From Candidatus Bathyarchaeota archaeon (GTDB taxonomy: Archaea; Thermoproteota; Bathyarchaeia; Bathyarchaeales; Bathycorpusculaceae), in assembly GCA_963775685.1 (NCBI GenBank), contig CAVZJV010000005.1, positions 37,022 through 101,021 of the forward strand: DNA of 64,000 nucleotides, in the 5' to 3' direction. Made by a program: the position numbers and the translations under genes. A model generated the notes under the pieces. The model did not search any database. It was not told where the DNA came from and saw only the letters and a program-made list of their open reading frames with translations. This document shows, piece after piece, positions 4,421-37,903 of the stretch; positions within the stretch are counted from its first letter, which is position 1; each line of letters opens with the position of its first letter.

Positions 4421-5356
4421 GTGGTAAAAAACGGTGAGACTACAATAGAGCAATGTCTTAATTCAGTATTGCAACAAGAACTAGATTACCCCTTCGAGGT
4501 GATTGTTGTTGACGGTGGTTCAACGGATAGCACAACCGACAAAGTCCAGCAATACTCTGTTCGTCTCATAAAAGATAATAATGGAACCATTGCACACAGC
4601 AGAAATGTTGGTATATACTCAGCGATGGGTGAATACATTGCTTTTACTGACTCTGACTGTGTAGTTGAAAAAAATTGGTTAAAATCACTCATAAACGAGA
4701 TACAAAGCAGCCCTAATATAGCAGCTGTCGGTGGCCCAAATTTAGTCGGTGATGCTGATCCACCATTCGGGAAAGTAGTCGGATATATGCAAGGGACATT
4801 TTTTGGTTCAGGCGGATCTCCTCAATCATATACAATGGGGAGTGCGCAATACGTTTATTCTCTGCCAAACTGCAATGCCATGTACAAAAAAAGCGTTTTT
4901 ATCGAAGAAACTTTTGATAGCAGTTTTAACGTTGGTGAGGACTGCGAACTAAATTTCAGGCTTAATCAAAGAGGGTATTCATTTTTGTATATACCCCATA
5001 TTATTGTTTGGCATCATCGTTCCAAAAATATTAAAAAATTCTTCGAAAAAATGTACAGTTATGGCTATGCTATGGGTAAGGTTAGCAAAAAGCATAAAAA
5101 GCTAGTTCGTTGGTTTGCACCTCTCCCCTCAATTGCATTGATTGCTTTAATCCTTGGCCTGCTCTTGATAGGTACTTTTCCGATTATTGCTCTGCCCATA
5201 TTAGCCTCTCTTTTTGTTTATATGGGCGTTCTTTTTTTTTCTACAGCCCAAGTATTTTCAAAATACAGACACAGTAAGTCATTGCTAGTAATGTTCCTTT
5301 TGCCATTACAGCACTTGGCTTATGCGACGGGTTTCCTAAAAAGTATCTTTGTATGA
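4421..5356 (+). CDS. GT2 glycosyltransferase with a C-terminal membrane domain
   Basis: VVDGGSTDST and FTDSDC motifs plus C-terminal TM helices. The start is uncertain: the conserved first beta-strand (LKIAVSVVVVVKN) lies upstream of GTG 4421 with no in-frame canonical start, and an ATG at 4389 is one base out of frame. Confidence 0.75.
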   Translation: MVKNGETTIEQCLNSVLQQELDYPFEVIVVDGGSTDSTTDKVQQYSVRLIKDNNGTIAHSRNVGIYSAMGEYIAFTDSDCVVEKNWLKSLINEIQSSPNIAAVGGPNLVGDADPPFGKVVGYMQGTFFGSGGSPQSYTMGSAQYVYSLPNCNAMYKKSVFIEETFDSSFNVGEDCELNFRLNQRGYSFLYIPHIIVWHHRSKNIKKFFEKMYSYGYAMGKVSKKHKKLVRWFAPLPSIALIALILGLLLIGTFPIIALPILASLFVYMGVLFFSTAQVFSKYRHSKSLLVMFLLPLQHLAYATGFLKSIFV

Positions 5357-5447
5357 TTTAATGATAAAAATATTGAGCGAAAAAGCATGAACCTTTCTTA
5401 TAGTAACTGGGCCTATTTAGCTCTCTTAAAAATGTGAAATAGAAACA

Positions 5448-6539
5448 ATGCACCCTGGTAAAACAGTTGCTTACCCCTTTGTAAGCATAATAATCCTAAA
5501 TTACAATGGGATTCGGTATCTGAAGAATCTTTTTGAATCTCTAGTTAAGACCGATTATCCAAAAGACCTCTTTGAGGTGATAATGGGCGATAACGGCTCT
5601 ACAGATGACTCAGTCAAGTTCACAGAAGAACACTTCGCTTTTGTAAGAGTGCTACGATTTGATAAAAACTACGGTTTCTGTAAAGGCAACAACTTATGTG
5701 CACAACAAGCGATTGGCAAATATGTTGTCTTTTTGAATACCGATATGATTGTAACCAAGGATTGGCTGAAAAGCCTTGTAGAGGCTGTTCTGAACGATAC
5801 GACCGCTATCAGTGCAGGCGCAAAACTACTGAAACCTTATGAAATTAACGGAAAAAAGGTGATTGATTATGCCGGTGGAAAGCTAACGAGTGAAATAAAT
5901 TTCTATGAGGGTCTGCTTGAATTTGATTGCCAAAGGTACTCTAACCAAAAAAGCACTGGTTTCGCTTGCGGCGCCGCGGTCTTGGTCGACAAGGAATTCT
6001 TCTTACTAGTTGGGGGATTTGATGAATACTACTTTGGCGGCGGCGAAGAAGTAGAGCTAGGTTTTCGTGTGTGGCAGTATGGCCACAAAGTCCTTTATGT
6101 TCCCTCGTCTGTTATCTACCACCTGAGATATGGTACGTTTAAAGAATCCGACCCCTTCCCGACCTATAATTGGGCAAAGAGCATGTTTTATTTTATTTTC
6201 AAGAACTACGGGAAAAAATATGTTGCTATCTACAGTTTTGAGAGTCTTTTAATGACGCATCTTCCAAAGATCATGGTTTTCATCGTTAACAAAGACTTGT
6301 CCTTGGCGAAGAGTGTCTTAAAAGGAATAGCTGATTTCTTTATTGAATTAAAAACAAAAAAGATTCTAGAGGATATCTATTTAAAAAGACAACCTATAAA
6401 GAAAAACGCCGTAATTTCCGATAATGACATGATAAAATTAAGTGTTACTGCATCTCTTTCAGAAAAAATGCAATATCGTATTAGACAATTTAAGAATTGG
6501 AACTCTGTTAGGCCAGAGAATCAATTGGTACAGAAATGA
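5448..6539 (+). CDS. GT2 glycosyltransferase
   Basis: VSIIILNYNG, IMGDNGSTDDS and FLNTDM (DxD-like) motifs. The architecture is that of a rhamnosyl/galactosyl-transferase-like GT-A enzyme. Confidence 0.85.
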   Translation: MHPGKTVAYPFVSIIILNYNGIRYLKNLFESLVKTDYPKDLFEVIMGDNGSTDDSVKFTEEHFAFVRVLRFDKNYGFCKGNNLCAQQAIGKYVVFLNTDMIVTKDWLKSLVEAVLNDTTAISAGAKLLKPYEINGKKVIDYAGGKLTSEINFYEGLLEFDCQRYSNQKSTGFACGAAVLVDKEFFLLVGGFDEYYFGGGEEVELGFRVWQYGHKVLYVPSSVIYHLRYGTFKESDPFPTYNWAKSMFYFIFKNYGKKYVAIYSFESLLMTHLPKIMVFIVNKDLSLAKSVLKGIADFFIELKTKKILEDIYLKRQPIKKNAVISDNDMIKLSVTASLSEKMQYRIRQFKNWNSVRPENQLVQK

Positions 6540-23197: not shown

Positions 23198-24385
23198 TTG
23201 GACGACATTGGTAAAAGAAGAATTTATATGGATTACTCAGCTGGAAAACCAGTTGATCCACGTGTAACCGATGCAATGGTGCCTTTCTTTAATTCACACT
23301 ACGGAAATCCATCGTCAGTGCATACGTTGGGACAGGAAGCAAAGCAGGCATTGGAAAAAAGCAGAGAAATCGTCGCACAATTAATAAACTCCGAGAAACC
23401 TGAAGCTATAGTTTTCACTTCAGGCGCGACAGAGAGCAACAATTTAGCAATTCGAGGTACAGCTGGCCGAAATAAAAGTCGCGGAAACAAAGTCATAACA
23501 TCCAGCGTAGAGCATATGTCAGTTGTTAACCCTTGTAAATTAATGATCCGAAACGGATTCCAAGTAGCTTTCTTGCCTGTGGACAAATTTGGGGTTTTGG
23601 ATTTAGAAAAGCTTGAAACAGAGTTGAATGATCAAACTACACTTGTTTCAATCGTTTACGCAAACCCTGAAATAGGAACTATTGAGCCGATTAAAGAGAT
23701 TAGCAAAATAGTGCATGCGAAAAAGGCTTTTCTACATGTTGATGCCACGGCAGCTTCAGGTCAAGTGCCCATTGATGTGCAAGATGAAAACATAGATCTC
23801 TTGACTTTATCAAGTAATGATATGTATGGACCAAAAGGCGTCGGAGCATTATACATTAAACCAGGCACCACGATAGAGCCCATAAATCAAGGTGGCGGTC
23901 AGGAACGTGGATTGCGGTCAGGAACAGAAAACATACCTGGTGTCGTGGGGTTTGCTAAAGCTGCAGAAATTGCCAAAAACGAAATGACTAATGAAAGTAA
24001 AAGATTGATCTTGCTCCGCAACAAACTAATTGAAGGCCTTATCGAGCCTATACCAAATTCATATCTTAACGGTCATCCAACCCAAAGGTTACCCGATAAT
24101 GTGTCAGTTAGATATAGCTTCATAGAGGGCGAGTCAATACTTTTGAGTTTAGACATTATGGGCGTTTTTGCATCATCTGGCTCAGCATGTGCCGCAAAAA
24201 CTTTGCAGCCCTCACATGTTTTGCTGGCTTTGGGCCTAGAACCTGAGGATGCACATGGTTCTTTGATGCTGACTTTGGGAAGGGAAAATACTCAAGAGGA
24301 TGCGGATAAATTAAAAAGTATCATGCCGGGTATTGTTAAGAGACTAAGAGATATGTCTCCTCTAACTCCTAAGGAGTTGAAATAA
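23198..24385 (+). CDS. iscS: cysteine desulfurase (NifS/IscS class)
   Basis: IYMDYSAGKPVDPRV, FTSGATESNN, a PLP-lysine region (SSNDMYGPKG), RSGTENIPG and the active-site loop SSGSACA. Confidence 0.9.
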   Translation: MDDIGKRRIYMDYSAGKPVDPRVTDAMVPFFNSHYGNPSSVHTLGQEAKQALEKSREIVAQLINSEKPEAIVFTSGATESNNLAIRGTAGRNKSRGNKVITSSVEHMSVVNPCKLMIRNGFQVAFLPVDKFGVLDLEKLETELNDQTTLVSIVYANPEIGTIEPIKEISKIVHAKKAFLHVDATAASGQVPIDVQDENIDLLTLSSNDMYGPKGVGALYIKPGTTIEPINQGGGQERGLRSGTENIPGVVGFAKAAEIAKNEMTNESKRLILLRNKLIEGLIEPIPNSYLNGHPTQRLPDNVSVRYSFIEGESILLSLDIMGVFASSGSACAAKTLQPSHVLLALGLEPEDAHGSLMLTLGRENTQEDADKLKSIMPGIVKRLRDMSPLTPKELK

Positions 24386-24387
24386 TT

Positions 24388-24777
24388 ATGTATTCTGAAA
24401 AAGTGATGGAACATTTTAAAAAACCTCAAAATATGGGTGAAATTCCAGATGCCGATGGTGTGGGTTCAGTTGGAAACCCCACTTGCGGAGACCTAATGAC
24501 GATGTACATTAAAGTCAAAGAAGACCGAATTGAAGACGTTAAATTCAAAACATACGGTTGCGGAGCCGCCATTGCTACAAGCAGTATGACCACTGAACTC
24601 GCAAAAGGAAAAACTGTGGATGAGGCAATGAAAATAACTCGCGCGAGTGTAGCTGACTCACTTGGAGGTCTCCCAGCCGTAAAAATGCATTGCTCAAACT
24701 TGGCAGCTGATGCACTCCATGCCGCCATCGAGGACTATAAACAAAAGCAGAAAAGTAAAGAAGAGGTGGAAGAATGA
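24388..24777 (+). CDS. iscU: Fe-S cluster scaffold IscU/NifU-like
   Basis: GNPTCGD, KTYGCGAAIA and MHCSNLA provide the three conserved Cys ligands. The gene starts 2 nt after the desulfurase stop. Confidence 0.9.
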   Translation: MYSEKVMEHFKKPQNMGEIPDADGVGSVGNPTCGDLMTMYIKVKEDRIEDVKFKTYGCGAAIATSSMTTELAKGKTVDEAMKITRASVADSLGGLPAVKMHCSNLAADALHAAIEDYKQKQKSKEEVEE

Positions 24778-24929
24778 AAAAAGAAACCGCCAAGTGCAAA
24801 TGTTGCGATACCGAAATTTCGGGAGAACCTTGTGAGCTTGCAGCTTACACTACCGAAGTAGATGGAAAAACAGTCAGCTTTTGTTGTCAAAATTGTGCAC
24901 CACAGGAAAAGAAGGTGATAAAAAAATGA
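24774..24929 (+). CDS. 50-aa Cys-rich TRASH/YHS-like metal-binding mini-protein (below the ORF-track cutoff)
   Basis: MKKETAKCKCCDTEISGEPCELAAYTTEVDGKTVSFCCQNCAPQEKKVIKK. There are ATGA overlaps with both neighbours (24774-24777 and 24926-24929). Confidence 0.5.
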   Translation: MKKETAKCKCCDTEISGEPCELAAYTTEVDGKTVSFCCQNCAPQEKKVIKK

Positions 24930-25346
24930 GTGAAAAAAAGAAATTAGCTTTAGTTGTTCAAAGTGGAACAATCGATAAACTATATTGCGCTTTCATTTTG
25001 GCATCCACATCTGTAGCCATGGGCTGGGAAGCGCACTTATACTTCACATTTTGGGGATTGCAAAGTCTAGGCAAAGGGGGCCATGGAAAAAGCAGTGTTA
25101 CCCGGAGACTACAAACATCTGGAAGAGACTATGCGAAAGAATTTAGAACGTATGAAATACCCCTCGCCTTACGATATGCTCAAGCGCATCAAGCAATCTG
25201 GTCTATGCACGATTTACGCATGTACTCCAACCATGGAAATGTTTGGAATCAAAAGAGAAGATCTGATTCCTGAAGTTGATAGCATGGTTGGCGCTGCAAC
25301 CTTCCTCGACATCGCCGCTGGCGCAGACGTTTCAATGTTCATATGA
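24926..25346 (+). CDS. DsrE/DsrF-like (COG2210-type) sulfur-relay protein, frameshifted at a G5 run (25076-25080)
   Basis: The N-terminal part MSEKKKLALVVQSGTIDKLYCAFILASTSVAMGWEAHLYFTFWGL continues in another frame as AVLPGDYKH...LCTIYACTPTMEMFGIKREDLIPEVDSMVGAATFLD, which is a single family-typical protein. Confidence 0.7.
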
Positions 25347-25603
25347 TCAGCTAATCTTAAAGAACGGCCATTCATACAAACAAACAACAGCTACAATATC
25401 AAAACACAACTTTTTATTCAGAAGTTGAGAGCAACGGCTATTTGATTGATCTAAACAGAATGCTATTCAAAACAAAAAAATTATGCTAACTCAATTTAGC
25501 AGACAATCTTTTTTTATTTAATCAAAATATTTAACCAGCCCATTTTAACGTAAAAGTTAAATGTCAAGTAAGGATTTAGAAGTTTATTCTTGAAGGTAAT
25601 TCT

Positions 25604-26833
25604 ATGGCAAACAATAAACCTCTACAAGTATCCAAAGACATCTTTTGGGTCGGAGTCAACGATTCCGAAACCCCCCTCTTTGAGGGACTTTGGAGCATAC
25701 CTGAAGGCGTTTCATACAACTCATATCTAGTTAAAGGCTCAGAGAAAACTGCTCTAATCGATAGCGTTCACGAAAAAAAAACTCAAGAGCATCTCGAAAA
25801 AATAAGCCAAATAACAGACCTCTCCAAAATAGACTATTTAATCATCAATCACATGGAACCCGACCATACAAGTGCAATTCCAACGTTCCTGCAAAAAGCA
25901 CCCAACGTCCAAATAGTCTATACCCCAGTCGCCCAAAGCATCTTCAAAAAATTCTACGGAATCACCCCCCAAGCAATCATTGCTAAAGGCGACGATATGA
26001 CAATTTCTTTGGGAAACAAGACGCTGCATTTTATTCAAACGCCGTGGCTTCATTGGCCCGAAACCATGAGCACCTACATACCAGAAGATAAAGTTCTATT
26101 TTGTTGCGATGCCTTCGGAGCGTTCAAAAAGCTACCGCAAGGAGCCATAATGGAATCAGATATTGACATGGACAAACAGAACGTTTGCGGATGCTCTCAG
26201 AAATATTTTGCTTCCGTCTTCAACGGACAAAAAGAATGGGTTCAAAAGGCCATCGAGAAATTTGAAAAAATGAATCTACAGATTGATGTTTTAGCACCAA
26301 GTCATGGTCCAGTATATACCCAAACAGTAAAGGAAACATTAAGTCGATGGGCTGGCTGGAGTAAAGGCACCTACAAAAAAACAGTCATCATCGTTTACTG
26401 CTCTATGTATGGGATGACAGCCAAGTGCCTAAGCGCCTTAGCTGACGGTATCACAGAAGCAGGGGGTACGGTGAAAAGCTTTAATCTCTCAGAAGCCAAG
26501 CCAGTTGATGCCTTAACAGCTCTTGTTGAAGCTCCTGCAATGATTGTTGGAACACCCACCTATGAACACGAGATCTTCCCCAAAGTTGCAGATTTCATAA
26601 ATTTGCTTAGGACAAAAAAATTTTCCAACAGGTGTGCCGCGGTTTTCGGGAGTTTTGGCTGGAGTGGAGAAGCAACAAGAAAAACAGTTTCTGAACTTTC
26701 TACTTTGGGATTTGAAATGGTGGGGGAACCGCTTCCAATATATGGAAGCCCAACAAATGATGATCTTCAGAAGGCACGACAAATGGGCAAAGCAGTCGCA
26801 GAAAAAGCCTTTTCCATGAACAATGAAAAATAA
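25604..26833 (+). CDS. fprA: flavodiiron protein (FprA-type O2/NO reductase)
   Basis: Metallo-beta-lactamase-like domain with HMEPDHTS (HxExDH), followed by a flavodoxin-like domain (VIIVYCSMYGMT...GTPTYEHE). Confidence 0.9.
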   Translation: MANNKPLQVSKDIFWVGVNDSETPLFEGLWSIPEGVSYNSYLVKGSEKTALIDSVHEKKTQEHLEKISQITDLSKIDYLIINHMEPDHTSAIPTFLQKAPNVQIVYTPVAQSIFKKFYGITPQAIIAKGDDMTISLGNKTLHFIQTPWLHWPETMSTYIPEDKVLFCCDAFGAFKKLPQGAIMESDIDMDKQNVCGCSQKYFASVFNGQKEWVQKAIEKFEKMNLQIDVLAPSHGPVYTQTVKETLSRWAGWSKGTYKKTVIIVYCSMYGMTAKCLSALADGITEAGGTVKSFNLSEAKPVDALTALVEAPAMIVGTPTYEHEIFPKVADFINLLRTKKFSNRCAAVFGSFGWSGEATRKTVSELSTLGFEMVGEPLPIYGSPTNDDLQKARQMGKAVAEKAFSMNNEK

Positions 26834-27033: not shown

Positions 27034-27318
27034 CTACCGTGGAGTATTTTCTTTAAGTTTTTGTTTTGATTTCTCGATTATTTCACAGATTAGACCTGCG
27101 GTGTCGTCAAGCATTTTCTTGAGTTTCTTCATGTCTTCTTCAACAATTTCTCGGTTTTCTAGAAGCGGGTAGACGCTCACGTGTATTAGGTCGAATGTGG
27201 CTTTTATGTCAATTTTTCCGGTCCTTTTTTGATCCATGACCGACTTTAGTATTTTTTCTCTTTTTGCGATTTCCTCAATCTTTAACTTGGGTTTATCGCT
27301 ACTTAGGCTTCTGCTCAT
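27034..27318 (-). CDS. 94-aa helical K/E-rich protein, last gene of the five-gene module
   Basis: Its ATG at 27318 directly abuts the stop (27319-27321) of the upstream gene. No motif recognised. Confidence 0.5.
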   Translation of the reverse strand: MSRSLSSDKPKLKIEEIAKREKILKSVMDQKRTGKIDIKATFDLIHVSVYPLLENREIVEEDMKKLKKMLDDTAGLICEIIEKSKQKLKENTPR

Positions 27319-28506
27319 TTACATAACCACCTCAATCTCTGGAATTTTCATTCCACATAAGTTTAATCCCTTGATTTTGATTCCTTTTAAGACTAAGTTT
27401 AAGTCCAGCTGGTTGGCAATTGCGGAATCTGTGGTAACTGATCCGTTAAGATTTGAAAATTCCAAGCCACCTTTGACTCTCATTATCATTTTGGTGATAT
27501 GAAGAGTTAATGCCCCGGTAATGTGGGCTCTGTCTGCGTCGCCGTGGAGGGCAACTCCTGCGCCATACATTTTTTTGGAAGTTGATATTGTCACTGGAGT
27601 CGTAGATTGTGCCTCGAACGCTTGGGTGGTGACAGAAGGAATTGTAACATTTAAGGCAGTTATGTTTTTCATTGAAGCTTGTGGGCTTGAAATTCCAGTT
27701 GAATCCATTTCATCTATACTTGTTTGATCCGTTGCTATGTCGTTAGGACCCATGGGATTGGGTACAGGTAGACAAAGTCCAATGCTAATTCCCAGAGGCG
27801 TATCAATAGGAATACTGGTGCATTTCATTTGAATATTTTCAGCGGTAACTTGGTCGATCTTTGTTCCTCTTATCGGATCAGGCGTCATTGAGAACGGACC
27901 AATAGAAGTCAAGGAAGAAAGCATTGAAAATTGGCCAGTGCCAAACAAAACATCTCCCAAAGAATGTTTCTCAACATAAGAATCAAAATCCACCCCACCT
28001 GAGACGCCATAACAAAAATCTGACCAACAGATAGGCCAAGGCAGATCAATGTTACCTGAAAAGGTCGTGCTAATGGATAAAGTAATTTCTAACTCTACAT
28101 TTTTTGCTTTGCAGGAATCATACTTAAAGGTCCCGCTAAAGTTTTTCAATCGAAGGCTTGGAATCGATATTTGCCCAATCTCTATTTCAGCAACAGAGAG
28201 AGGCCCGCCAATGCTGGAAGCAATTTCTGACTGCGGTATAACTGCGCGGGTCGTAACCTTTTCTTGTCTAGGCCGACAGCGCATCGTAGGCGGAGGGCAA
28301 TCGCAGCCTTTTGATGGTATCTTTGGTAAGTCAAAGCAAACTTTTTCTGTTTTTACATCTATTTTGGGTAAGTTTAGACATACTTTTTGAGTTTCGATGT
28401 TTGGCACTGGGATACAGATTTTTTGGTCTGTTGTGGTAGCGACAGAAGTTACTTCTTTGGAAATATTCTCTGGCAAAACTTTTTTTGTTCTCGAGCTTTT
28501 GCTCAA
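27319..28506 (-). CDS. 395-aa Cys-rich protein with an N-terminal tandem [QE]-K-[IV]-C-x-x-[VL]-P-x-I motif; unknown function
   Basis: No signal peptide or TM helix. Three motif copies are followed by CDCPPPTMRC, then a long S/T/G-rich beta-type body. I recognise no family. Confidence 0.6.
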   Translation of the reverse strand: MSKSSRTKKVLPENISKEVTSVATTTDQKICIPVPNIETQKVCLNLPKIDVKTEKVCFDLPKIPSKGCDCPPPTMRCRPRQEKVTTRAVIPQSEIASSIGGPLSVAEIEIGQISIPSLRLKNFSGTFKYDSCKAKNVELEITLSISTTFSGNIDLPWPICWSDFCYGVSGGVDFDSYVEKHSLGDVLFGTGQFSMLSSLTSIGPFSMTPDPIRGTKIDQVTAENIQMKCTSIPIDTPLGISIGLCLPVPNPMGPNDIATDQTSIDEMDSTGISSPQASMKNITALNVTIPSVTTQAFEAQSTTPVTISTSKKMYGAGVALHGDADRAHITGALTLHITKMIMRVKGGLEFSNLNGSVTTDSAIANQLDLNLVLKGIKIKGLNLCGMKIPEIEVVM

Positions 28507-28609
28507 TTGCTTGACCCCATTTCTATGTATGACTTATTGTTATTTATCGTTTTTGTTAAGATGCTCGATTGGTAAATAACGATGAGAACTATAGACGTTT
28601 TTACTGTTG

Positions 28610-29008
28610 CTAACGTAGTTTATATGTTAAGAAGTAGAATCGAGGTGACATTCTTGAAAGACGTAATATCTGCTCAAAAATTTTATAGCATTTTAGCAGT
28701 GTTGCGGGTTCTCCAAATGCCTCAATTTTCCCTGATTGAAGTGCGTTGTCGAGGGTAATTCTGCCTTCAAGAAGGTCAAACAGGCCTATCCTCGAAAGGA
28801 TTATGTGTACATCAATTTTTTTGGGTTTATTTTTTTCTCCGATAACAACGTCGTCAGAGGTGACGTGAATTACAGTAATCTCATTGTCGAGAGTTTGAAG
28901 CCAAGTTAAGCCTTGAGTATCCTTGACAATTTTTTGGAAGTACAGTGGATAATCTTGTTTCATTAACGCTATTAGTTCTCTAAGAAACTGTTCAAGCTTC
29001 AATTGCAT
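28610..29008 (-). CDS. SCP2 (sterol-carrier-protein-2)-like lipid-binding domain protein
   Basis: The C-terminal GLFDLLEGRITLDNALQSGKIEAFGEPATLLK matches the SCP2 signature region. The ORF extends to 29080, but the ATG at 29008 limits the overlap with the upstream gene to 17 nt. Confidence 0.55.
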   Translation of the reverse strand: MQLKLEQFLRELIALMKQDYPLYFQKIVKDTQGLTWLQTLDNEITVIHVTSDDVVIGEKNKPKKIDVHIILSRIGLFDLLEGRITLDNALQSGKIEAFGEPATLLKCYKIFEQILRLSRMSPRFYFLTYKLR

Positions 29009-30119
29009 AGCTGTTAACCCTCTTTCGTGGTCGAACTGACTCAAACCAGCAAGGAAGAACAGAATCATATTTTTGGCCATTTATCTTCCCCCTGAGGTCT
29101 GCTTCACAGAACATTTCGTTGAAAACAACTTCTGAAGGACTCATGAGACTAGCGTTGACTACACTGCACACAGCTTTGGGGGTAAATGTAATTTTAAGTT
29201 TGTCGGCACCCTTAGAAGCGGCAAATGTCAAGTTCTTCGATATTGCAGGATGGTAATCTGGATAAAGCAATTGTGTAATTGCCGGCATAATGCTCAGGTT
29301 ACCATCATACTTCCCTTTTGTGGCTATTTGCATTTCTGCGTTATCAAAGAATTGTTTTTTCCCACTCTTGCTTTCAAAAAAGACTCCGCCATAGGAAAGA
29401 TCGTCTGTGTCTCCGTAACGATAAATAAGAAAGTCTATCCTCTCCGGCTCCTGGGCAGCTAAGGGATCACAAAAGATGACGCCAGTGTCCCAGCCCCAAG
29501 TCGTTCCTATGTCGAAACATCCACCTTCATGGTCCTGATACCCCTGGCTAGTTTTAATTTGATAAGTTTTTTTGTCGAGCTGTAATTTTCCTTTAACAAG
29601 TAATCTTGGTAGCTCCACCCAGTTTTCCCATTGGCGGTTCATTTCTTGGGCAGCCAGAAGCATCTTTGCTTTAGGATCTTGCACTTTGAGCACATCAATA
29701 AATATGTCTTTGTCCGTTACGGGAGGCAGAGCAACCTTAAAATTAAGGTCAAATGAAGTTTGCTCCATCTTCCCTATAACTTTGAAAGAATTGTCTTTTA
29801 GCAAATTCACCGAGAAACTTTCACCAATAAAGTTTGGGTTGTAGGATGAAACCTCAAGATGATTCATGGGTATTAGCTTTATTTCAGAATAAATCTTTCC
29901 AGTGGGGTCGACAATGTACGCAAGTACTGAGCCCCAACCTCGTTTCGAATCGTAAGGATTGCCATGTATTCCAAAGTTTAAAAGACCGAATACCCGTTTT
30001 TTCCGGTCAAAAAACACGAAATCATGCCATTCCTGGTATAAGCTAACTTTTGTGTCAAAGATTGAGGGTAGAGTAAAAGCATCGACGCTGGCCGTGTCTT
30101 CTACACGGTATAAAGTCAT
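28992..30119 (-). CDS. 375-aa beta-rich protein resembling the CrtC/AttH, tocopherol-cyclase and DUF2804 group
   Basis: The SQGYQDHEGGCFDIGTTWGWDTGVIF segment resembles the D-H-x-W-G...W-x-W region of these lipocalin-like hydratases/cyclases. This assignment is from memory of family signatures, not a search. Confidence 0.45.
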   Translation of the reverse strand: MTLYRVEDTASVDAFTLPSIFDTKVSLYQEWHDFVFFDRKKRVFGLLNFGIHGNPYDSKRGWGSVLAYIVDPTGKIYSEIKLIPMNHLEVSSYNPNFIGESFSVNLLKDNSFKVIGKMEQTSFDLNFKVALPPVTDKDIFIDVLKVQDPKAKMLLAAQEMNRQWENWVELPRLLVKGKLQLDKKTYQIKTSQGYQDHEGGCFDIGTTWGWDTGVIFCDPLAAQEPERIDFLIYRYGDTDDLSYGGVFFESKSGKKQFFDNAEMQIATKGKYDGNLSIMPAITQLLYPDYHPAISKNLTFAASKGADKLKITFTPKAVCSVVNASLMSPSEVVFNEMFCEADLRGKINGQKYDSVLPCWFESVRPRKRVNSYAIEA

Positions 30120-30553
30120 TAGGACGACGGCTCGATGTTAGTCTCTTCAGGATTCGGAGCAGCTTTTTCTATGATATCAACAGCCCTATTGGAAACTTTT
30201 TGCACAAGAGTTAAGAGCTCTGTATTGAATTGGATATAAAGACGCATCATGTCAGCAACAGAGTTGCTCACAAGCTCGGTCATTTCTTCGTTGTCTAGTT
30301 TGCCCATACGGGCGGTCACTTTGCTCAATCTTTGAGCTGTCTGAACAGTGTTGTTAACTGAAGCCTGAGTTAACTTGGTTAGTTGGTCTTTGTACTCAGG
30401 ATTGTTTAGGGTAGAAACGATTTGGTCAATGGCTTTCTGCACAGTTTTTGGGTTTGGCATTACTGTTTTGGGATTTGCTTCTGCGGCATTTTTGGTCCTT
30501 GCACTTGCTTTTTTGGTTGTTTGAGCGCTCATTGTTATCTCCACTTTCATCAT
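30119..30553 (-). CDS. 144-aa all-helical A/K/Q/T-rich phasin-like protein
   Basis: Low-complexity basic N-terminus followed by amphipathic helices. Its stop overlaps the next start (TAATG at 30119). An alternative start lies at 30532. Confidence 0.5.
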   Translation of the reverse strand: MMKVEITMSAQTTKKASARTKNAAEANPKTVMPNPKTVQKAIDQIVSTLNNPEYKDQLTKLTQASVNNTVQTAQRLSKVTARMGKLDNEEMTELVSNSVADMMRLYIQFNTELLTLVQKVSNRAVDIIEKAAPNPEETNIEPSS

Positions 30554-30568
30554 CTCTGTTGGTTGTAT

Positions 30569-31594
30569 TTATTTTTTCCGCTGAATCAGGTAGTTCGTCT
30601 GTTCGAGAAAGAAATCTTTCCACCTTTTTTCGACTATCCAGTCGCATTCATTTAGCAAAACGTTCTTTGCTTTGGTGGCGAATTGATTTGCAGTTTTTCT
30701 AGCATATTCAATGGAACCGTATTTTTGCATAAGATCTCTAACATACATCACATCCTCTTCTGTCTTGATTTCTCGAGGTGTTTCCAATATTTTTCGAATA
30801 CGGTCTTTCTCTTCTTGAGTACAAGAGTTAAGAGTGTGAATAAGCATGAGAGTTCTTTTTCCTTCCAAAATATCGCCATCGATCTCTTTGCCATAAAGGT
30901 CCTGAGACGCTGTAAGGTTCAGAGTGTCATCGGTTATCTGAAATGCTATTCCCGTGTAGAGAGCATACCTAGTTATGGCATCTAATTGTTTAGGAGTTGC
31001 CTCATCTAACCCAATAATTATCCCTGTTCTGCATGGGGTAATAATGGTATACCAACAAGTTTTATTCTCGCAGATATAGTAATAATCTTCAGGCTTCAAA
31101 TCAACCCGATTATCTCTAACAAAAGTTAACTCAGTTATCTGCCCTTCTACACTTCTTCTTGCGGTCTCCTGTATTTCCATGATTATTTGCAAAGCTTTCC
31201 TAACGCCTATCGACGCCAAGTTGTCAACAAGTGGCGACATTGCAAGGATTTTCACCGCGTCCCCTGCATTCGCTGCCAAAGCAAGACCATACTTTCTGTT
31301 TAGAGTAAGGTCGCCGCGTCGATAAATCGATTGATCAACAATATCATCCTTTATTAGAAACGAATTGTGCAAAAGCTCAATAGCCGTGGCAGTGTTTATC
31401 GCATTATTGTAGTCGCCACCCACTGATGCCGCCGCTGCAAGACAAAGCAAAGGACGAATCCCTTTTCCTGGTCTAGTGGGATAGTCAGCCAAGAGTTCGT
31501 ATGCTAACGTTTTTGATCCAAAGTTACGTTTAAGATAGTACTGCATCCGAACAGCTACTTTTTTCTTCATCTTGGACAGAACTAATTCGCTCAA
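30569..31594 (-). CDS. trans-polyprenyl diphosphate synthase (GGPP-synthase-like)
   Basis: First Asp-rich motif DDIVD (LIKDDIVDQ), second motif FQITDDTLN (DDxxN variant), and a GKEIDGDILEGKRT region. Confidence 0.85.
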   Translation of the reverse strand: MSELVLSKMKKKVAVRMQYYLKRNFGSKTLAYELLADYPTRPGKGIRPLLCLAAAASVGGDYNNAINTATAIELLHNSFLIKDDIVDQSIYRRGDLTLNRKYGLALAANAGDAVKILAMSPLVDNLASIGVRKALQIIMEIQETARRSVEGQITELTFVRDNRVDLKPEDYYYICENKTCWYTIITPCRTGIIIGLDEATPKQLDAITRYALYTGIAFQITDDTLNLTASQDLYGKEIDGDILEGKRTLMLIHTLNSCTQEEKDRIRKILETPREIKTEEDVMYVRDLMQKYGSIEYARKTANQFATKAKNVLLNECDWIVEKRWKDFFLEQTNYLIQRKK

Positions 31595-31675
31595 GCGAAG
31601 ACCAACCCCTCATAATACCCAATATTCATAGATAACCTTTGTCCAGTTATTTTAGGAGAATAAAGCATGCATAAG

Positions 31676-33169
31676 TTAGTTGGATTTCGCTTTCTCCTCG
31701 GTTTCTAAGTAGTTTGAAGACGATGCGATTGCAACGTTTATTGCGCTTGTAGCGGATTTAATGAACCAATTGATGAAGGCAGATGGGTTCTGGGTTGCTT
31801 GAACAGTTATTTCGAAGCCTGTTTGGAGAGCTTCCATTGTAGCTTTTGCCAAGGCATTTGGATCTTGGATTGCGTCGAGCAAATTTGTGGGCCCTTTTGA
31901 TAATAGGGCTTGTTCAATTGTTCCCTGGGCGACCTCCAAGTTGGTAGCTTCGCTTTGAGGTACGGTTCCCATTAGGATGCCTCCGACGATATCAGCATAT
32001 CTCGGATCCGCTTGTGAACGTGCAGCCATGAGTTCCATTGAACGGAGCCAAAGTGAATTGAAGCTTCGATTTCTTATCAATTGAACTATTAGACTTGCAA
32101 GTGACATTCCGTATCGAAGTTCTTTCTCAACAAAACTTTGGTATGTCAACAAAGCTTCTTTGGATAAATCGTCGGCTATCAAACAAGAGATTGCAACTTC
32201 GGAAGCCCATCTGCCACTAAGAAGGGCGTATTGAATTCCTTCTCCGTTTAGAGGATTCACTAAACCCGCGGCATCGCCTACAAGCATTACTCGATTGTCA
32301 ACCAATGATTGGTTTGCGTTATAGGTTGTTAAAGGCCAACCTTTTATCGGCCCGATCAATTTAGCGTTTCTAAGGCGTTTATGCAATGATAAATCATTCT
32401 CGATGAGTTGATTTAGAAGCTCGTTCAAGCGTTTACCAGAAGGTATGGTGTCTAAGACCATGCCGACTCCTACGTTAGCTTGGTTTTTGCCCGTTGGGAA
32501 AAGCCAGCAGTAACCGGGAAAACTTTCTTTGTTGAAGTGCAGGTCAGCATGATTTGAAGAACCATCTACGTCTTTGAAGTATCCGCGTATGGCAATTATT
32601 CTGTCTGCACTCGAAGGAGGGTGCCCCCTGACGAGTTTGGCAATGGTTGAGTTGCTGCCATCCGCACCGATTAAAAGGCGAGCTTTTAATATTTTTTTAC
32701 CCGAAGGTCCCTCTACCTGTAACTCAACGATTTTGCGCTTTGTGTGCATACCTACTGCCTTTAATCCCTCAAAGAAAACAGCCCCTTCTTTGATGGCTGC
32801 GTCTAAAAGTAGTTTATCCAAAATAAAACGAGGAACCACACGCCCGTATCTGGGAAGACCTTGAACCTTTGGCACGGATCTGGAAATCAATTCGTTGCCA
32901 TCCAGATAAACTGACGCTCTCCTAATGAGGTTTGACCTCTTAAATTCAGGAGAATTTGCAAGACCCAACCTTCCAAGCTCAATTTGTGCTACAGGACTCA
33001 CAAAGTCACCGCAAACTTTGTCACGTGGAAATTTACACTTGTCAACGAGAATCACATCATAACCCGCAGATGCAAAGTAGTAAGCAGCAGCAGAGCCGCT
33101 AGGTCCAGCACCAACTACGATCACATCGCTATCATATTCTTGTTTTTTGTCTAATAGAATGATTATCAC
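31676..33169 (-). CDS. geranylgeranyl reductase family flavoprotein with a roughly 100-aa C-terminal extension
   Basis: VIVVGAGPSGSAAAYYFASAGYDVILVDK (FAD Rossmann), VCGDF, and LVGDAAGLVNPLNGEGI. At 497 aa it is longer than typical archaeal GGRs. Confidence 0.85.
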   Translation of the reverse strand: MIIILLDKKQEYDSDVIVVGAGPSGSAAAYYFASAGYDVILVDKCKFPRDKVCGDFVSPVAQIELGRLGLANSPEFKRSNLIRRASVYLDGNELISRSVPKVQGLPRYGRVVPRFILDKLLLDAAIKEGAVFFEGLKAVGMHTKRKIVELQVEGPSGKKILKARLLIGADGSNSTIAKLVRGHPPSSADRIIAIRGYFKDVDGSSNHADLHFNKESFPGYCWLFPTGKNQANVGVGMVLDTIPSGKRLNELLNQLIENDLSLHKRLRNAKLIGPIKGWPLTTYNANQSLVDNRVMLVGDAAGLVNPLNGEGIQYALLSGRWASEVAISCLIADDLSKEALLTYQSFVEKELRYGMSLASLIVQLIRNRSFNSLWLRSMELMAARSQADPRYADIVGGILMGTVPQSEATNLEVAQGTIEQALLSKGPTNLLDAIQDPNALAKATMEALQTGFEITVQATQNPSAFINWFIKSATSAINVAIASSSNYLETEEKAKSN

Positions 33170-33611: not shown

Positions 33612-34100
33612 TTGTCAGAATTAGCCAACAGCTGTGAATACTTAACAAGTGAGAAATTATGCTTAGCTGTTTTAGAAAGCGAGAAAGCAAAGGCAGCCAG
33701 GCAGGAGCGATGCAAAAATGAAGAGAAGACGACCTGTTGCTATCTTTGCATGTTCGTGTTTAACTGTGCCACTCCCTGTCGGTTTTTGGGAAAAGGGGAG
33801 AGCGAGCTAAACCAAATCGACTCTGAAAAAACCCGCATTGAAAACATATCCATAAGTGAACAAAAACCCGAAGAGCTCAAAACAAAAAATTCACCTGTAA
33901 CCCGCTGCTTGTTATGTGACGTCGAGATGTCGCAAGCTCGAACTAAGTTTAAGATAGAGGGTTTGGAAAGATCAGGTCAAGAACTTTCTGAAGATGACTC
34001 AGGGCAATTGGAAAAGGAAGTGCTGCCTGTAATAGTTTATCTCTGTCCAAAATGTGGTAAAATCGAGTTTAAGGCGGATGAAAAACTAAGCAAGGACTAA
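33612..34100 (+). CDS. Cys-rich protein with a C-terminal zinc ribbon
   Basis: The C-terminus has C-L-L-C ... C-P-K-C-G. The N-terminus has a TTCCYLCMFVFNCATPC cluster. TTG start. Confidence 0.5.
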   Translation: MSELANSCEYLTSEKLCLAVLESEKAKAARQERCKNEEKTTCCYLCMFVFNCATPCRFLGKGESELNQIDSEKTRIENISISEQKPEELKTKNSPVTRCLLCDVEMSQARTKFKIEGLERSGQELSEDDSGQLEKEVLPVIVYLCPKCGKIEFKADEKLSKD

Positions 34101-34636: not shown

Positions 34637-37600
34637 TTGACGCAGTTGGGAAGAAACCTCTTCGACACATTGAATAAATTTATTATAAAGCGGCATCGCT
34701 TGATAATCATTGCCTGGATTATTGCTTTAATTGTTTCGTTAAGTTTGGTTCCCAGTTTTTTTGGGGCAGTTTCATACGACATTACAGGCGGTTTTGCCGC
34801 TCCCACAAATAGCCAATCCGAAAAAACATCACACATACTAAAGGCTCAGTTTCCAAGTTCTCAAAACCAAAGCGCCAACAGCATCCTACTTGTAGTTCAT
34901 GGCACACAGCCGTATTCCGATGATTTAAGGAAAGCTATACTTGACCTAAACCAAACAATCTCAAAGGACCAAAGCATTGTGAACTTTACAGGGGAATCCA
35001 GCATCTACTCCACCGAGTACAGCTTACTTAATTCGTCAATTCCAAGCATTCTGCCACAAGTTGACGCCCTAGAAAATAACATAAGCTCCATCAACACAGG
35101 CGTCTATTCATTAGCGACAAACTTGGCTCCACTAAACGCAAACATTTTTCAAACCATCGAAGGAATCAACCAGACCGCTCAACTGGTCTTTGGGATTCCA
35201 GCGGCTTTTGTGGAAGTGTGGCAGGGAATAACCAGTCAAGGATTAACTGACCCATACCTTGCAAACTTTCAAGCCAACGTAACCGCCTACCAAATCACAA
35301 ACAATTTCGGAGACGACCCAAGCTCTATCGGCTACTACTCTGCATTCTTTAACGTCTGGAATGCCAGCTTCCTAAGCCTTCCAAGCAACGCTAGCTCTGT
35401 TCAAGACAGGGAAGCTTTGGCTATTAACCAATCAGTCACGCTTTTTTTGGGCAATACACAATTAGATGAACAAACTAAACAAATCGTAACAGCAGTTGGT
35501 TCAGGCTTGACAGTTTCAAGTTGGAGCCAAAGCGAATCCATCACAAACTTAGCTAAGTCAACAATAGCCTCAAGCATTCCATCCGACCTGTCAACTCAAC
35601 TGGCCATCACACCTCAAACCCTAATCAACCAACTCTACAGTTTGGGAGCCGCACCCTCAAACGCTACAATTTTGAAGTATGCAATTAACTTGACTGTAAA
35701 CTCGATGGGAAACCTTACAGACAGCGACATCGGTTTTTCGCCCTCACAACTTGTAAATGAAGCCGTCAACTTGGGTTCATCTCCAAGCTTCAAACAGCAA
35801 TGGATGCTTTCGTGCGAATTTATCGCAAACGCTACCCAAAGCGCATTCGTGGATTCTCCCCTTTTCTCAATTAATAGCTCTTCCTTAGCTACTTTGCTTT
35901 ATGTTCTGCCACAAAGGGCCACCTTAACCGAAATCGATGCGGCAATCGAAAACACAATCGCATATCAAAACTATGTTAGCTACCCCTACAAACCAACCCA
36001 TGCAATCACCCAAAACTTTGTTGGCACCGACAACAACACGGTGCTTATCATTTTGGGCTTCTCTTCAGAACCAGATGTCACATCAATAGCTCAAATAAAG
36101 TCAGCCGTACAAAACTCAGAATTGCAAAACCTAGGAACAACCTACGTTACCGGGTCACCTGTTCTCGGTCGCGACATCGAAAACACCTTCATACCCGCAC
36201 TTGAACTCACCGTAGGACCCGCGATCGCCATTTCTTTGTTGATTGTCGGACTCTTATTCTTGGCACCTTTAGCCGCGATTATCCCGATCATTTTAGGAGG
36301 TTTTTCGACAGTTATTTCTCTTGCTTCGATCTATTTTGCAGTGGTTATAGTAGGTAAAGGCGACATAACATTCCTTACACCCACTCTGACCATCCTTCTT
36401 CTGCTGGGATTAGCAGTTGACTACGCGGTCTTGCAGCTTAGACGAACAAGAGAAGAGAGACAACAAGGCAGATCGGTAGAAGAGAGCGTAGGGCTCTCCG
36501 TCCGTTGGGCTGGGCAAGCTGTGCTTACCGCAGGAATCACAGTCATCGTAGCGTACATAGTAATGGCAGTTGTTAACGTACCTATATTCAGCGATGTGGG
36601 AACTGCTATTGCCATCAGCGTCTCCATTCTGCTTGCAGCCTCCTTAACGCTGCTACCTGCACTTGAAATCGCTTTGAATGATAAAATTTTTTGGCCGGGA
36701 CTAGGCAAAAACAAAAACATCTCCTCCAATTCGCCGCGTTTAAGAAACCTGGCGAAAAATATACTAAAAAAGAAAAAAGTAATAGCTATTCTAATAAGCG
36801 GGTTGGCTTTGGGCGCATTCTACTTTGAATATACAACACCCACCGGCTCAGACTTCCTAAAACTCATACCAAACTTTTCCAGCAACCAGGGCTTAACGGT
36901 TATATCGAACAGTTTTGGAGGCGCATCCATCAGTCCAACCACCATTGTGGTAACAACCCCCACTCCTGTATCCTACGGCAAAAACCAACTAAATCAAACT
37001 CTCATGGACCAACTTGAATTGGTAGCCATTTCAGTCGCTAACTCGCCCAATGTAGTCACAGTGATTGGCCCCACAAGACCGTTTGGTTCCTCTTTCAACT
37101 ATTCAGGGCTATCAAGCATGTCTGACACGCTTAAGCCGCAATATGAAAGCCAAATCTACTCTATGATAGGGAAAGACAATATGACCGTTCGAATCACGGT
37201 GGGACTCGCTAACGAATCGCAAAGTCAGATTGCTATGACTTCGCTTCTTCAAATGGAAAAGAAAATTAATGCGCTGGTACTTATTGACGGGGTCACAGTT
37301 AATTTTGGCGGAGAAACCCAATCCTCGATAGACAGCAAAGCCTTTATGGCAAACCTGCTGCCCGAAGTCGTCGTTATCCTCTCCGTTGCAGTGTACATAA
37401 TCTTATTTGTGCAACTTCGGTCAGCCTTCACCCCTCTACGGCTAATTTTCACCATACTCTGCAGCGTAGCTTTTGCGATAGCTATTCTCTCAGCAGTTTT
37501 CTTCTATGCCAGCAATTTGCCAATCCTCGACTTCGCACCCCTCTTTGTGGTAGTAACTATGCTAGGGGTAGGAATAGACTACGACATATTCTTTGTAACC

Positions 37601-37903
37601 CGAATACGCGAAGAAGCACTCAAAGGAAACACAGACGATGAAGCCATAAAAACAGCCGTCGAAAAAGTTTGGGTAACCATTCTGGGGTTGGGATTAGTTC
37701 TTGCCACCGTCTTTGCGTCCTTGATCATAACAGGCATCGCACTTTTGCAAGAAATCGCCTTAGCTGTATCAGCCGCCATAATCATCGATGTTTTGGTGGT
37801 TATCCTGTTTTTTGTGCCTTCCCTGATGGGGTTAGCACAGAGACTTAACTGGTGGCCACATAAAACCTCAAAAACTCCACAAGACACTACAGAAAACACC
37901 TAA
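34637..37903 (+). CDS. MMPL/RND-superfamily membrane transporter (1088 aa)
   Basis: Two blocks of about 6 TM helices, each preceded by a large extracytoplasmic domain. The motifs GLAVDYAVLQL and GVGIDYDIFFVTRIREE are typical of MMPL domains. Confidence 0.85.
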   Translation: MTQLGRNLFDTLNKFIIKRHRLIIIAWIIALIVSLSLVPSFFGAVSYDITGGFAAPTNSQSEKTSHILKAQFPSSQNQSANSILLVVHGTQPYSDDLRKAILDLNQTISKDQSIVNFTGESSIYSTEYSLLNSSIPSILPQVDALENNISSINTGVYSLATNLAPLNANIFQTIEGINQTAQLVFGIPAAFVEVWQGITSQGLTDPYLANFQANVTAYQITNNFGDDPSSIGYYSAFFNVWNASFLSLPSNASSVQDREALAINQSVTLFLGNTQLDEQTKQIVTAVGSGLTVSSWSQSESITNLAKSTIASSIPSDLSTQLAITPQTLINQLYSLGAAPSNATILKYAINLTVNSMGNLTDSDIGFSPSQLVNEAVNLGSSPSFKQQWMLSCEFIANATQSAFVDSPLFSINSSSLATLLYVLPQRATLTEIDAAIENTIAYQNYVSYPYKPTHAITQNFVGTDNNTVLIILGFSSEPDVTSIAQIKSAVQNSELQNLGTTYVTGSPVLGRDIENTFIPALELTVGPAIAISLLIVGLLFLAPLAAIIPIILGGFSTVISLASIYFAVVIVGKGDITFLTPTLTILLLLGLAVDYAVLQLRRTREERQQGRSVEESVGLSVRWAGQAVLTAGITVIVAYIVMAVVNVPIFSDVGTAIAISVSILLAASLTLLPALEIALNDKIFWPGLGKNKNISSNSPRLRNLAKNILKKKKVIAILISGLALGAFYFEYTTPTGSDFLKLIPNFSSNQGLTVISNSFGGASISPTTIVVTTPTPVSYGKNQLNQTLMDQLELVAISVANSPNVVTVIGPTRPFGSSFNYSGLSSMSDTLKPQYESQIYSMIGKDNMTVRITVGLANESQSQIAMTSLLQMEKKINALVLIDGVTVNFGGETQSSIDSKAFMANLLPEVVVILSVAVYIILFVQLRSAFTPLRLIFTILCSVAFAIAILSAVFFYASNLPILDFAPLFVVVTMLGVGIDYDIFFVTRIREEALKGNTDDEAIKTAVEKVWVTILGLGLVLATVFASLIITGIALLQEIALAVSAAIIIDVLVVILFFVPSLMGLAQRLNWWPHKTSKTPQDTTENT

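Follow-up and report, generated by a model that had tools for sequence, protein, structure and literature searches.

Gene content and organization of the locus

The stretch analyzed here, hereafter the window, is a 64,000-nucleotide segment of contig CAVZJV010000005.1 from a Candidatus Bathyarchaeota archaeon, in which seven neighboring minus-strand genes form a putative isoprenoid-modifying module (Table 1). In the direction of transcription, they encode a flavoprotein of the geranylgeranyl reductase (GGR) family, a prenyl diphosphate synthase, a protein of 144 amino acids (aa), a 375-aa protein with a predicted fold of the AttH/CrtC type, an SCP2-like protein and two further proteins of 395 and 94 aa. 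An earlier reading, made without database searches (the sequence-only reading), had interpreted the region as five translationally coupled genes appended to a GGR and prenyl synthase operon, together making, modifying and sequestering an isoprenoid. All seven open reading frames (ORFs) lie where that reading placed them and all seven genes are real, with dozens to thousands of homologues each. The observation is largely correct, and the core of its interpretation, namely an isoprenoid module with an AttH-like fold and an SCP2-like carrier, is right. No transmembrane segment is found in any of the seven proteins; the module is built only of soluble proteins.

Table 1. Coordinates of the module genes and conserved intergenic blocks in the window, and of related features at other loci (L numbers are locus identifiers).
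Feature	Sequence	Position	Strand	Remarks
GGR-family flavoprotein	Window	31676..33169	minus	497 aa, GTG start
Conserved intergenic block GA(C/G)AAAGGTTATCTAT (= GACAAAGGTTATCTAT)	Window	31628..31643	minus	5' of synthase gene; BRE/TATA-like
Prenyl synthase	Window	30569..31594	minus	341 aa, TTG start
144-aa ORF	Window	30119..30553	minus	
AttH/CrtC-fold protein (predicted)	Window	28992..30119	minus	375 aa
SCP2-like protein	Window	28610..29008	minus	133 codons from ATG 29008
Conserved intergenic block ACAAAAACGATAAATAAC	Window	28539..28556	minus	BRE/TATA-like, 5' of 395/94 pair
395-aa protein	Window	27319..28506	minus	TTG start
94-aa basic protein	Window	27034..27318	minus	
~350-aa GGR-like flavoprotein	L001	10112-11185		
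~350-aa GGR-like flavoprotein	L003	11273-12325		
~350-aa GGR-like flavoprotein	L007	11352-12404		
~350-aa GGR-like flavoprotein	L038	3374-4423		further copies at other loci
Bacterial-type cassette	L044	2362-8992		
Bacterial-type cassette	L040	354-6666		
Bacterial-type cassette	JGI 3300041965 contig			
MMPL/RND-type transporter	Window	34637-37903	plus	1088 aa, divergent from GGR
Cys-rich ORF	Window	33612-34100	plus	162 aa, divergent from GGR
NifS-like cysteine desulfurase, NifU-like scaffold, DsrE-like and flavodiiron-type (metallo-beta-lactamase + flavodoxin) genes	Window	23198-26833	plus	downstream of module
ELP3-type radical SAM gene and triose-phosphate isomerase	L005/L006 (Methanoperedens)	4601-6208		precede module

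Junctions between the genes, as read in the sequence, are either tight or loose. Only 15 nucleotides (nt) separate the synthase gene from the 144-aa ORF, which is joined to the 375-aa ORF by a TAATG at 30119; the 375-aa and SCP2-like ORFs overlap by 17 nt (28992-29008), and the TAA of the 395-aa ORF abuts the ATG of the 94-aa ORF (27319/27318). For the SCP2-like gene, the start at ATG 29008 is preferred over the mechanical ORF start at 29080, because homologues of 132 aa match it. The two loose junctions are an 81-nt spacer between the GGR and synthase genes and a 103-nt spacer between the SCP2-like and 395-aa genes, each of which holds a block that stands out in alignments (Table 1). The block on the synthase side is invariant in eight Bathyarchaeota loci within an otherwise variable spacer. 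That on the 395-aa side, ACA(A/C)AAACGATAAATAAC in the alignment, is invariant in nine, the rest of its 90-130-nt spacer being variable; a conserved GGGG and the conserved TTG start of the 395-aa gene come after it. Both blocks contain the pattern AAA(C/G)G(A/T)TA... and resemble archaeal promoters, with a transcription factor B recognition element (BRE) and TATA box, which would serve the synthase block and the 395/94 pair respectively. The proposal of five coupled genes is therefore accurate at the four tight junctions, which are exact, but not over the region as a whole, since two spacers are loose and carry conserved promoter-like boxes and so divide it into two coupled blocks. By the same spacers and blocks, the single coupled operon of the sequence-only reading gives way to what are probably three transcription units, comprising the GGR gene, the synthase-144-375-SCP2 genes and the 395-94 genes. 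Translation looks coupled inside each multi-gene unit.

Distribution and conservation of the module

Gene context is the strongest and the decisive evidence for the module. A scan of one genome per GTDB species identified 29 module loci, distributed among soil metagenome-assembled genomes (MAGs) of Bathyarchaeota (the clade of the window), Candidatus Methanoperedens and non-ammonia-oxidizing Thaumarchaeota, including Candidatus Gagatemarchaeum. Comparison of the seven window proteins with all fetched loci by tblastn showed that the order and strand of the synthase, 144-aa, 375-aa and SCP2-like genes are invariant in about 30 independent loci from these three archaeal lineages, wherever the sequence is long enough. 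The 144-aa gene always lies between the synthase and AttH-like genes, and the SCP2-like gene is always directly downstream of the AttH-like gene, including in the remote relatives L038, L039, L040 and L043. The 395/94 pair is always found within about 2.5 kb of this four-gene core, on either strand: Bathyarchaeota and Methanoperedens have it directly downstream, most Thaumarchaeota encode it on the opposite strand, and in L001 it lies upstream. A prenyl synthase is linked in every context examined, both archaeal and remote, which upholds the suggestion that the module is co-conserved with isoprenoid genes; because every locus examined keeps this linked synthase, the module is clearly not a set of genes that occurs away from isoprenoid genes or in scrambled order.

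The pairwise-identity matrices of the synthase, 144-aa, 375-aa and SCP2-like proteins correlate at r = 0.93-0.98, a value to which shared species phylogeny contributes. In these matrices, the modules of Methanoperedens group with those of two groundwater 'Thaumarchaeota', consistent with a module that is horizontally mobile and transferred as a unit.

More remote relatives extend this pattern. L038 (E 1e-76), L039 and L043 keep the same architecture, and bacterial-type loci, which have sigma-54 regulators and Ser/Thr kinases nearby, carry a cassette in which a prenyl synthase is followed by three small ORFs (about 200-240, 114-137 and 78-95 aa) and then an AttH-like gene. The cassette ends variously: bacterial-type loci have a 650-890-aa amine-oxidase-like protein of the flavin adenine dinucleotide (FAD) type or a NUDIX hydrolase at this position. 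In L040, a 149-aa SCP2-like ORF and a NUDIX gene follow the AttH-like gene; in L044, the AttH-like gene is followed by an ORF of ~148 aa without an SCP2 match.

The AttH/CrtC-fold protein

The 375-aa protein represents a family of 113 homologue clusters that share 43-100% identity and a nearly constant length. Its AlphaFold2 (AF2) model, calculated from an alignment of 50 homologues, has a mean predicted local distance difference test score (pLDDT) of 86 and a predicted template modeling score (pTM) of 0.89. Foldseek searches with this model matched AttH NE1406 (2ich; E 4e-12; template modeling (TM) scores 0.59/0.67), kievitone hydratase (about 1e-9), 25-phosphosteroid lyase (9fzn; about 1e-8) and the decalin-forming pericyclases (Diels-Alderases) Phm7, Fsa2 and CghA, with 7a0t, 9fzn and 7e5v at 1e-9 to 1e-8. 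As modeled, the protein is a double beta-barrel (lipocalin-like tandem) of the AttH/kievitone hydratase/25-phosphosteroid lyase type. Its placement in the CrtC/AttH fold group by the sequence-only reading agrees with this structural match and with weak sequence matches to DUF2804 and tocopherol cyclase.

Sequence models describe the family poorly. The AttH and CrtC models of Pfam match no sequence among 50 family members and 67 wider relatives, and the only matches at the sequence level, to DUF2804, DUF7065 and Tocopherol_cycl, are all sub-threshold. DUF2804 is weakly matched by seven of the 50 family members and four of the 67 wider relatives, and Tocopherol_cycl by five of the latter; in the Pfam test for DUF2804/tocopherol cyclase, the window protein reaches 15.9 bits, short of the 26.9-bit cut-off. 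As judged by these models, the 375-aa protein lies outside every existing Pfam family. Its relatives are nevertheless numerous, with a profile search of 1.84 billion representatives recovering 299 wider relatives, 131 of them at E <= 1e-10.

Conservation within the family centers on a set of polar residues. Invariant among these are D38, N48, D57, Y194, D196, H197, E198 and D203, with W210, D211, D218, E224, R234, E335 and E360 also invariant. Across the 67 wider relatives, W31, G177, Y194, D196, G200, W210 and P279 are unchanged, and the consensus around Y194/D196 reads AYHDHNWGxFxWG even among these divergent sequences. Catalysis by CrtC requires a Tyr-x-Asp pair (Y266, D268) together with H239 and W241, which lie 25-27 residues upstream of the Tyr (PMC4717167). 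In the 375-aa protein, Y194-Q-D196-H197 is invariant and two tryptophans, W164/W167, precede Y194 by 27-30 residues; no His is evident that would correspond to the one in the H-x-W motif of CrtC. By position in the sequence, the likeness of Y194/D196 to the catalytic pair of CrtC is suggestive. The protein is presumed, by analogy, to be the catalytic core of the module, acting as a hydratase, cyclase or lyase on an isoprenoid.

The prenyl synthase and the SCP2-like carrier

The synthase scores 187.6 bits on PF00348 and its nearest solved relatives are the geranylgeranyl diphosphate (GGPP) synthases of Thermus (1wmw; 1e-44) and Pyrococcus (1wy0). The first of its Asp-rich motifs is DDIVD and the second DDTLN, a DDxxN variant that also occurs in the Thermus thermophilus GGPP synthase 1wmw; a Phe lies four positions before the first. 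On its sequence, it is a short-chain trans-isoprenyl diphosphate synthase resembling GGPP synthases, and we infer a product of about C20, though it falls far below all cut-offs of the NCBIfam equivalog models. Synthases linked to the module form a recognizable group, with 68-75% identity across phyla and the signature HN(A/S)FLIK-DDIVD plus FQITDDTLNL in all of them; every synthase linked in remote or bacterial loci has HNAFLI(K/H)-DDxxD ... FQIxDDxLNL. In L008, a second polyprenyl synthase is present, at 32% identity.

The protein encoded downstream of the AttH-like gene had been read as an SCP2-type lipid carrier, and its family agrees with this: all 24 members match Alkyl_sulf_C (best E 7e-6) and 21 of the 24 match SCP2 (best E 2e-6). 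The window protein itself scores below both cut-offs (21.6 against 27 bits and 17.3 against 21.3 bits, respectively). Profile searches of the PDB returned weak matches to SCP2 proteins (4uei, 1c44) and to the C-terminal regions of alkyl sulfatases, along with unrelated chance ones. The protein is best described from its sequence as a probable SCP2-like lipid carrier.

Reductases associated with the module

Reductases of the GGR type accompany the core in two lineages, in different forms. The 497-aa GGR of the window exceeds the cut-off of TIGR02032 (215.1 against 158.8 bits) and of the GGR_cat model PF22578 (40.2 against 27 bits) and also matches FAD_binding_3. It is far below the cut-offs of the substrate-specific equivalogs (MenJ and digeranylgeranylglycerophospholipid (DGGGPL) reductase); its nearest solved structure is the DGGGPL reductase of Thermoplasma (3oz2). 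A gene for this protein is directly upstream of the synthase gene in all Bathyarchaeota loci and is absent from the loci of Methanoperedens and Thaumarchaeota. Membership of GGR in the module, as had been proposed, thus applies to Bathyarchaeota but not to the other two lineages, making the enzyme a lineage-specific accessory.

Many Thaumarchaeota loci have a divergent GGR-like flavoprotein of ~350 aa adjoining the module (Table 1). These proteins match TIGR02032 with E-values of 1e-12 to 4e-16, below the thresholds of TIGR02032 and GGR_cat, contain GxGxxG, YxWxFP and GEGI motifs and share 59-77% identity with one another. They appear to represent a second, independent recruitment of a GGR-type reductase.

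The C-terminal extension of the 497-aa GGR, which had been singled out as unusual, is real: the tail is ~85 aa longer than in Thermoplasma 3oz2 and ~30 aa longer than in Sulfolobus 3atq. However, relatives of ~500 aa with 47-55% identity cover at least 94% of the window protein, and since this wider subfamily has the same length, the tail is a subfamily trait and not peculiar to the cluster. A relationship between the tail and the 144-aa protein was considered and rejected (BLASTP E 3.6).

The 144-aa protein and the 395/94 pair

The 144-aa protein consists of a basic, variable N-terminal tail and a conserved domain of ~95 aa in alignments, the latter being probably helical from its sequence. 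Its family has no consistent match in Pfam or the PDB, and NCBIfam gave none for the protein. The Methanoperedens homologues have an in-frame stop before a conserved peptide; read-through or pyrrolysine insertion was rejected as an explanation, the codon being TAA, an ordinary stop.

The 395-aa protein, with 100 homologue clusters, had been described as a Cys-rich repeat protein. This holds for an N-terminal tail of ~85 residues with Cys repeats and a CxCPPPxxRC motif, which occurs only in homologues from Bathyarchaeota and Methanoperedens and is absent in Thaumarchaeota, but the conserved part is an all-beta domain. The invariant residues of this core (~86-395) are mostly hydrophobic, Gly or Pro, and its AF2 model is composed of strands of 20-30 residues that form long beta-hairpins (core pLDDT 85-95). 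Residues 219-259 have a pLDDT below 50 in the model. Nowhere is the protein more conserved than in this segment (M227, C229, P237, P247, N250), which may be a partner- or ligand-binding loop. The core has no structural match in the PDB or viral fold libraries; matches of the model to secretin and capsid folds in them were rejected as chance (TM < 0.15). Residues 117-144 (SLRLKNFSGTFKYDSCKAKNVELEITLS) and 347-374 (GLEFSNLNGSVTTDSAIANQLDLNLVLK) form a weak internal repeat (hhalign E 0.002, probability 13%), a hint of duplication as the origin of the two beta halves of the protein.

The 395-aa homologue is followed by a homologue of the basic 94-aa protein, which is presumed to be helical, in Bathyarchaeota and Methanoperedens and at several Thaumarchaeota loci. 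Neither protein has a match in Pfam or NCBIfam. The pair constitutes a second, probably separately transcribed sub-module, for which a structural or binding role is more likely than a catalytic one.

Proposed function and alternatives

We consider it probable, with moderate confidence and by analogy with characterized enzymes of the fold, that the module hydrates or cyclizes a ~C20 prenyl chain by acid catalysis, a cytoplasmic process in which a carrier handles the lipid. The dedicated, GGPP synthase-like enzyme would make a short all-trans prenyl diphosphate, probably of about C20. In the 375-aa enzyme, to judge from its fold family, the invariant Y-x-D-H-E residues would serve as an acid/base center that protonates a trisubstituted double bond, either in the prenyl chain or in one of its close derivatives. 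The tertiary carbocation so formed would then be quenched in one of two ways. Water would yield a tertiary alcohol, the outcome with CrtC, kievitone hydratase and the hydratase Hgs, and an internal nucleophile or alkene would close a ring, the outcome with tocopherol cyclase. Binding of the hydrophobic substrate or product, and its onward transfer, would fall to the SCP2-like protein, with the 144-aa protein acting as an obligatory partner. Remaining double bonds would be saturated by the 497-aa GGR in Bathyarchaeota and by the unrelated-looking ~350-aa GGR-like flavoprotein in Thaumarchaeota.

Several points weigh against hydration or cyclization of a ~C20 chain. The kinship of the 375-aa protein to AttH/CrtC is structural only, with no significant Pfam or PDB profile, and searches of the PDB with the 50- and 67-sequence profiles of the AttH-like family gave nothing meaningful. 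The AttH-like fold is also host to Diels-Alderase and phosphate-lyase chemistry, and hydration is therefore just one option. The chain length of ~C20 would follow from one aromatic residue and from similarity to GGPP synthases. The Methanoperedens loci have no reductase within 10 kb of the module, and three of the six core proteins (144, 395 and 94 aa) are without an assigned role.

The best rival reading, though an unlikely one, is that the AttH-like protein is a non-canonical beta-barrel terpene synthase or lyase that acts directly on the prenyl diphosphate, ionizing it or eliminating diphosphate to yield a hydrocarbon or tertiary alcohol that is then carried by the SCP2-like protein. Such an activity would suit the constant pairing of the AttH-like gene with an adjacent, co-evolving synthase subfamily across archaea and bacteria, the solubility of all module proteins, the occurrence of a NUDIX hydrolase in the bacterial-type locus L040 and the lack of a canonical terpene synthase or prenyltransferase in any cluster, as well as the structural similarity to 25-phosphosteroid lyase (9fzn), which eliminates phosphate. 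Yet this role is inferred from context only; the 375-aa protein has no evident Mg-binding DDxxD or NSE motif, and literature searches gave no AttH-fold enzyme that uses prenyl diphosphates. To our knowledge, none is known. Of the broader possibility that the 375-aa family and its ~300 divergent relatives are a new all-beta class of terpene synthases or cyclases, acting on the diphosphate of the co-evolved synthase with an SCP2-like chaperone, we likewise think the chances low. A role in tailoring membrane ether lipids (hydroxy-archaeol-like or hydroxy-glycerol dialkyl glycerol tetraether-like), with the synthase and GGR feeding and saturating the chains, is more doubtful still. It draws on the precedent of Hgs, the AttH-like hydratase that makes hydroxylated glycerol dialkyl glycerol tetraethers (OH-GDGTs) in Bathyarchaeota and anaerobic methanotrophic archaea (ANME), on the adjacency of GGR in Bathyarchaeota and on a partial overlap in taxa with the hosts of Hgs (Bathyarchaeota and ANME-2d, i.e. 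Methanoperedens). However, no gene for Ted (the radical S-adenosylmethionine (SAM) enzyme of the B12-dependent type that accompanies Hgs), GGGPS, DGGGPS, CarS or Tes is found in any locus, all seven proteins are soluble, and the synthase/AttH-like/SCP2-like cassette also occurs in bacterial relatives, where archaeal ether lipids are lacking, for which reasons this role is less likely. Moreover, the AttH/CrtC models of Pfam miss the 375-aa family, whereas Hgs is annotated as AttH-like, and in one genome at least (L008), the module synthase is a paralogue.

The sequestering part of the sequence-only reading, in which the 144-aa protein is a phasin-like coat and the module builds and coats an isoprenoid storage body or lipid droplet, found no support and is very improbable. 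The helical appearance of the conserved 144-aa domain, the presence of a lipid carrier and the long beta-hairpins and structural-type conservation of the 395-aa protein could all suit such an assembly. The 144-aa protein is nevertheless not convincingly phasin-like: the phasin profile PF09361 matches only three of 24 family members, with E-values of 0.03 at best (0.26 for the window protein), and the family has no PDB match. Furthermore, no long-chain polymerizing enzyme is encoded, the synthase being of the short-chain type, and nothing points to granules.

Comparison with known systems

Literature searches for the module, DUF2804 and AttH-type terpene cyclases found no description of the module, which is best regarded as a family and gene architecture that are new within a fold and chemistry class already known. 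The sequence-only reading knew of no described archaeal system of this composition; literature searches agree, but the general idea has a precedent in Hgs, which has different partner genes. In Bathyarchaeota and ANME, the gene for this AttH-like hydratase, a hydroxy-GDGT synthase, adjoins that for the B12-radical-SAM desaturase Ted (bioRxiv 10.1101/2025.10.20.683597). Ted-Hgs is the nearest described system. Like the proposed enzyme of the module, Hgs is archaeal, soluble and of the AttH fold class and acts on isoprenoid chains; it too occurs in Bathyarchaeota and methane-cycling Methanobacteriota, and its substrate is revealed by the conserved gene pair to which it belongs. The partner genes are entirely different: the module has genes for a prenyl synthase, SCP2-like and helical proteins and the beta-protein pair, and has neither Ted nor Grs. 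In the loci read, no B12-radical-SAM (ted-type) gene lies next to the AttH-like gene, and the sole radical SAM neighbor is ELP3-type, in Methanoperedens. Non-detection by the AttH/CrtC Pfam models may also set the 375-aa family apart from Hgs.

CrtC and kievitone hydratase share the double beta-barrel, and their Tyr-x-Asp with upstream aromatics resembles Y194-Q-D196 and W164/W167; both are cofactor-free and convert a terminal prenyl double bond to a tertiary alcohol. However, structure-based identity to the 375-aa protein is about 9-13%, with no significant profile link, and because phytoene synthase and desaturase are absent the module is not a carotenoid pathway. A GGPP synthase, a GGR (ChlP) and a cyclase belonging to the same fold class also come together in the tocopherol pathway. 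Tocopherol cyclase (VTE1) and DUF2804 proteins give weak sequence matches to the 375-aa protein centered on Y-x-D-H-x-G-G, but these are below gathering thresholds, and the cluster has no aromatic prenyltransferase or methyltransferase. In the ubiquinone metabolon, the SCP2 proteins UbiJ/UbiT and the small coiled-coil UbiK chaperone a polyprenyl lipid between soluble enzymes. The carrier and small helical partners of the module are analogous to these proteins, with no sequence link beyond the SCP2 fold, and the module differs in having no quinone-ring enzymes. The 25-phosphosteroid lyase (9fzn) has the same fold, and its substrate is a phosphate ester at a tertiary carbon of an isoprenoid side chain. 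In contrast to the module, which has no kinase, this bacterial enzyme is catabolic, functioning with a partner kinase in anaerobic sterol degradation (PMC8449060).

Archaeal isoprenoid lipids serve as environmental and palaeoclimate biomarkers, and several of the enzymes that modify them are still missing. The lipids of Bathyarchaeota, Methanoperedens and terrestrial non-ammonia-oxidizing Thaumarchaeota are mostly deduced from genes, as these organisms are uncultured or hard to grow. With six or seven soluble proteins, the module is a compact set that could be co-expressed to find a new isoprenoid product, and the 375-aa enzyme might prove to be a cofactor-free hydratase or cyclase useful for biocatalysis. 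AttH-like relatives also lie beside bacterial prenyl synthases and have no curated model, and characterization of one member would therefore annotate hundreds of genes. Should the AttH-like family prove to be an all-beta terpene synthase, the module would be a widespread and unrecognized terpenoid cassette of archaea and bacteria, with products that are possibly new archaeal lipid biomarkers.

Neighboring genes

Genes flanking the module in the window were assessed for co-conservation, namely those for the MMPL transporter, an old-yellow-enzyme-type NADH:flavin oxidoreductase, a short-chain dehydrogenase, NifS/NifU and the flavodiiron protein. None of them is conserved with the module, and they were rejected as members; the GGR and 94-aa genes are accordingly the two ends of the unit. 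The MMPL gene adjoins the module in just one other Bathyarchaeota locus (L018) and so is probably outside the unit. The NifS/NifU/DsrE/flavodiiron genes adjoin it in two other loci only (L014 and L016). Scans of the window for tRNA genes and Rfam families gave no matches.

In Methanoperedens, the module is preceded by the ELP3-type and triose-phosphate isomerase genes (Table 1) and followed by an 843-aa ORF that belongs to no family; these flanking genes are not common to the other lineages. Five loci (L010, L012, L022, L036 and L037) have frameshifts or split matches inside module genes, which are probably assembly errors rather than pseudogenes, because neighboring genes are equally affected.

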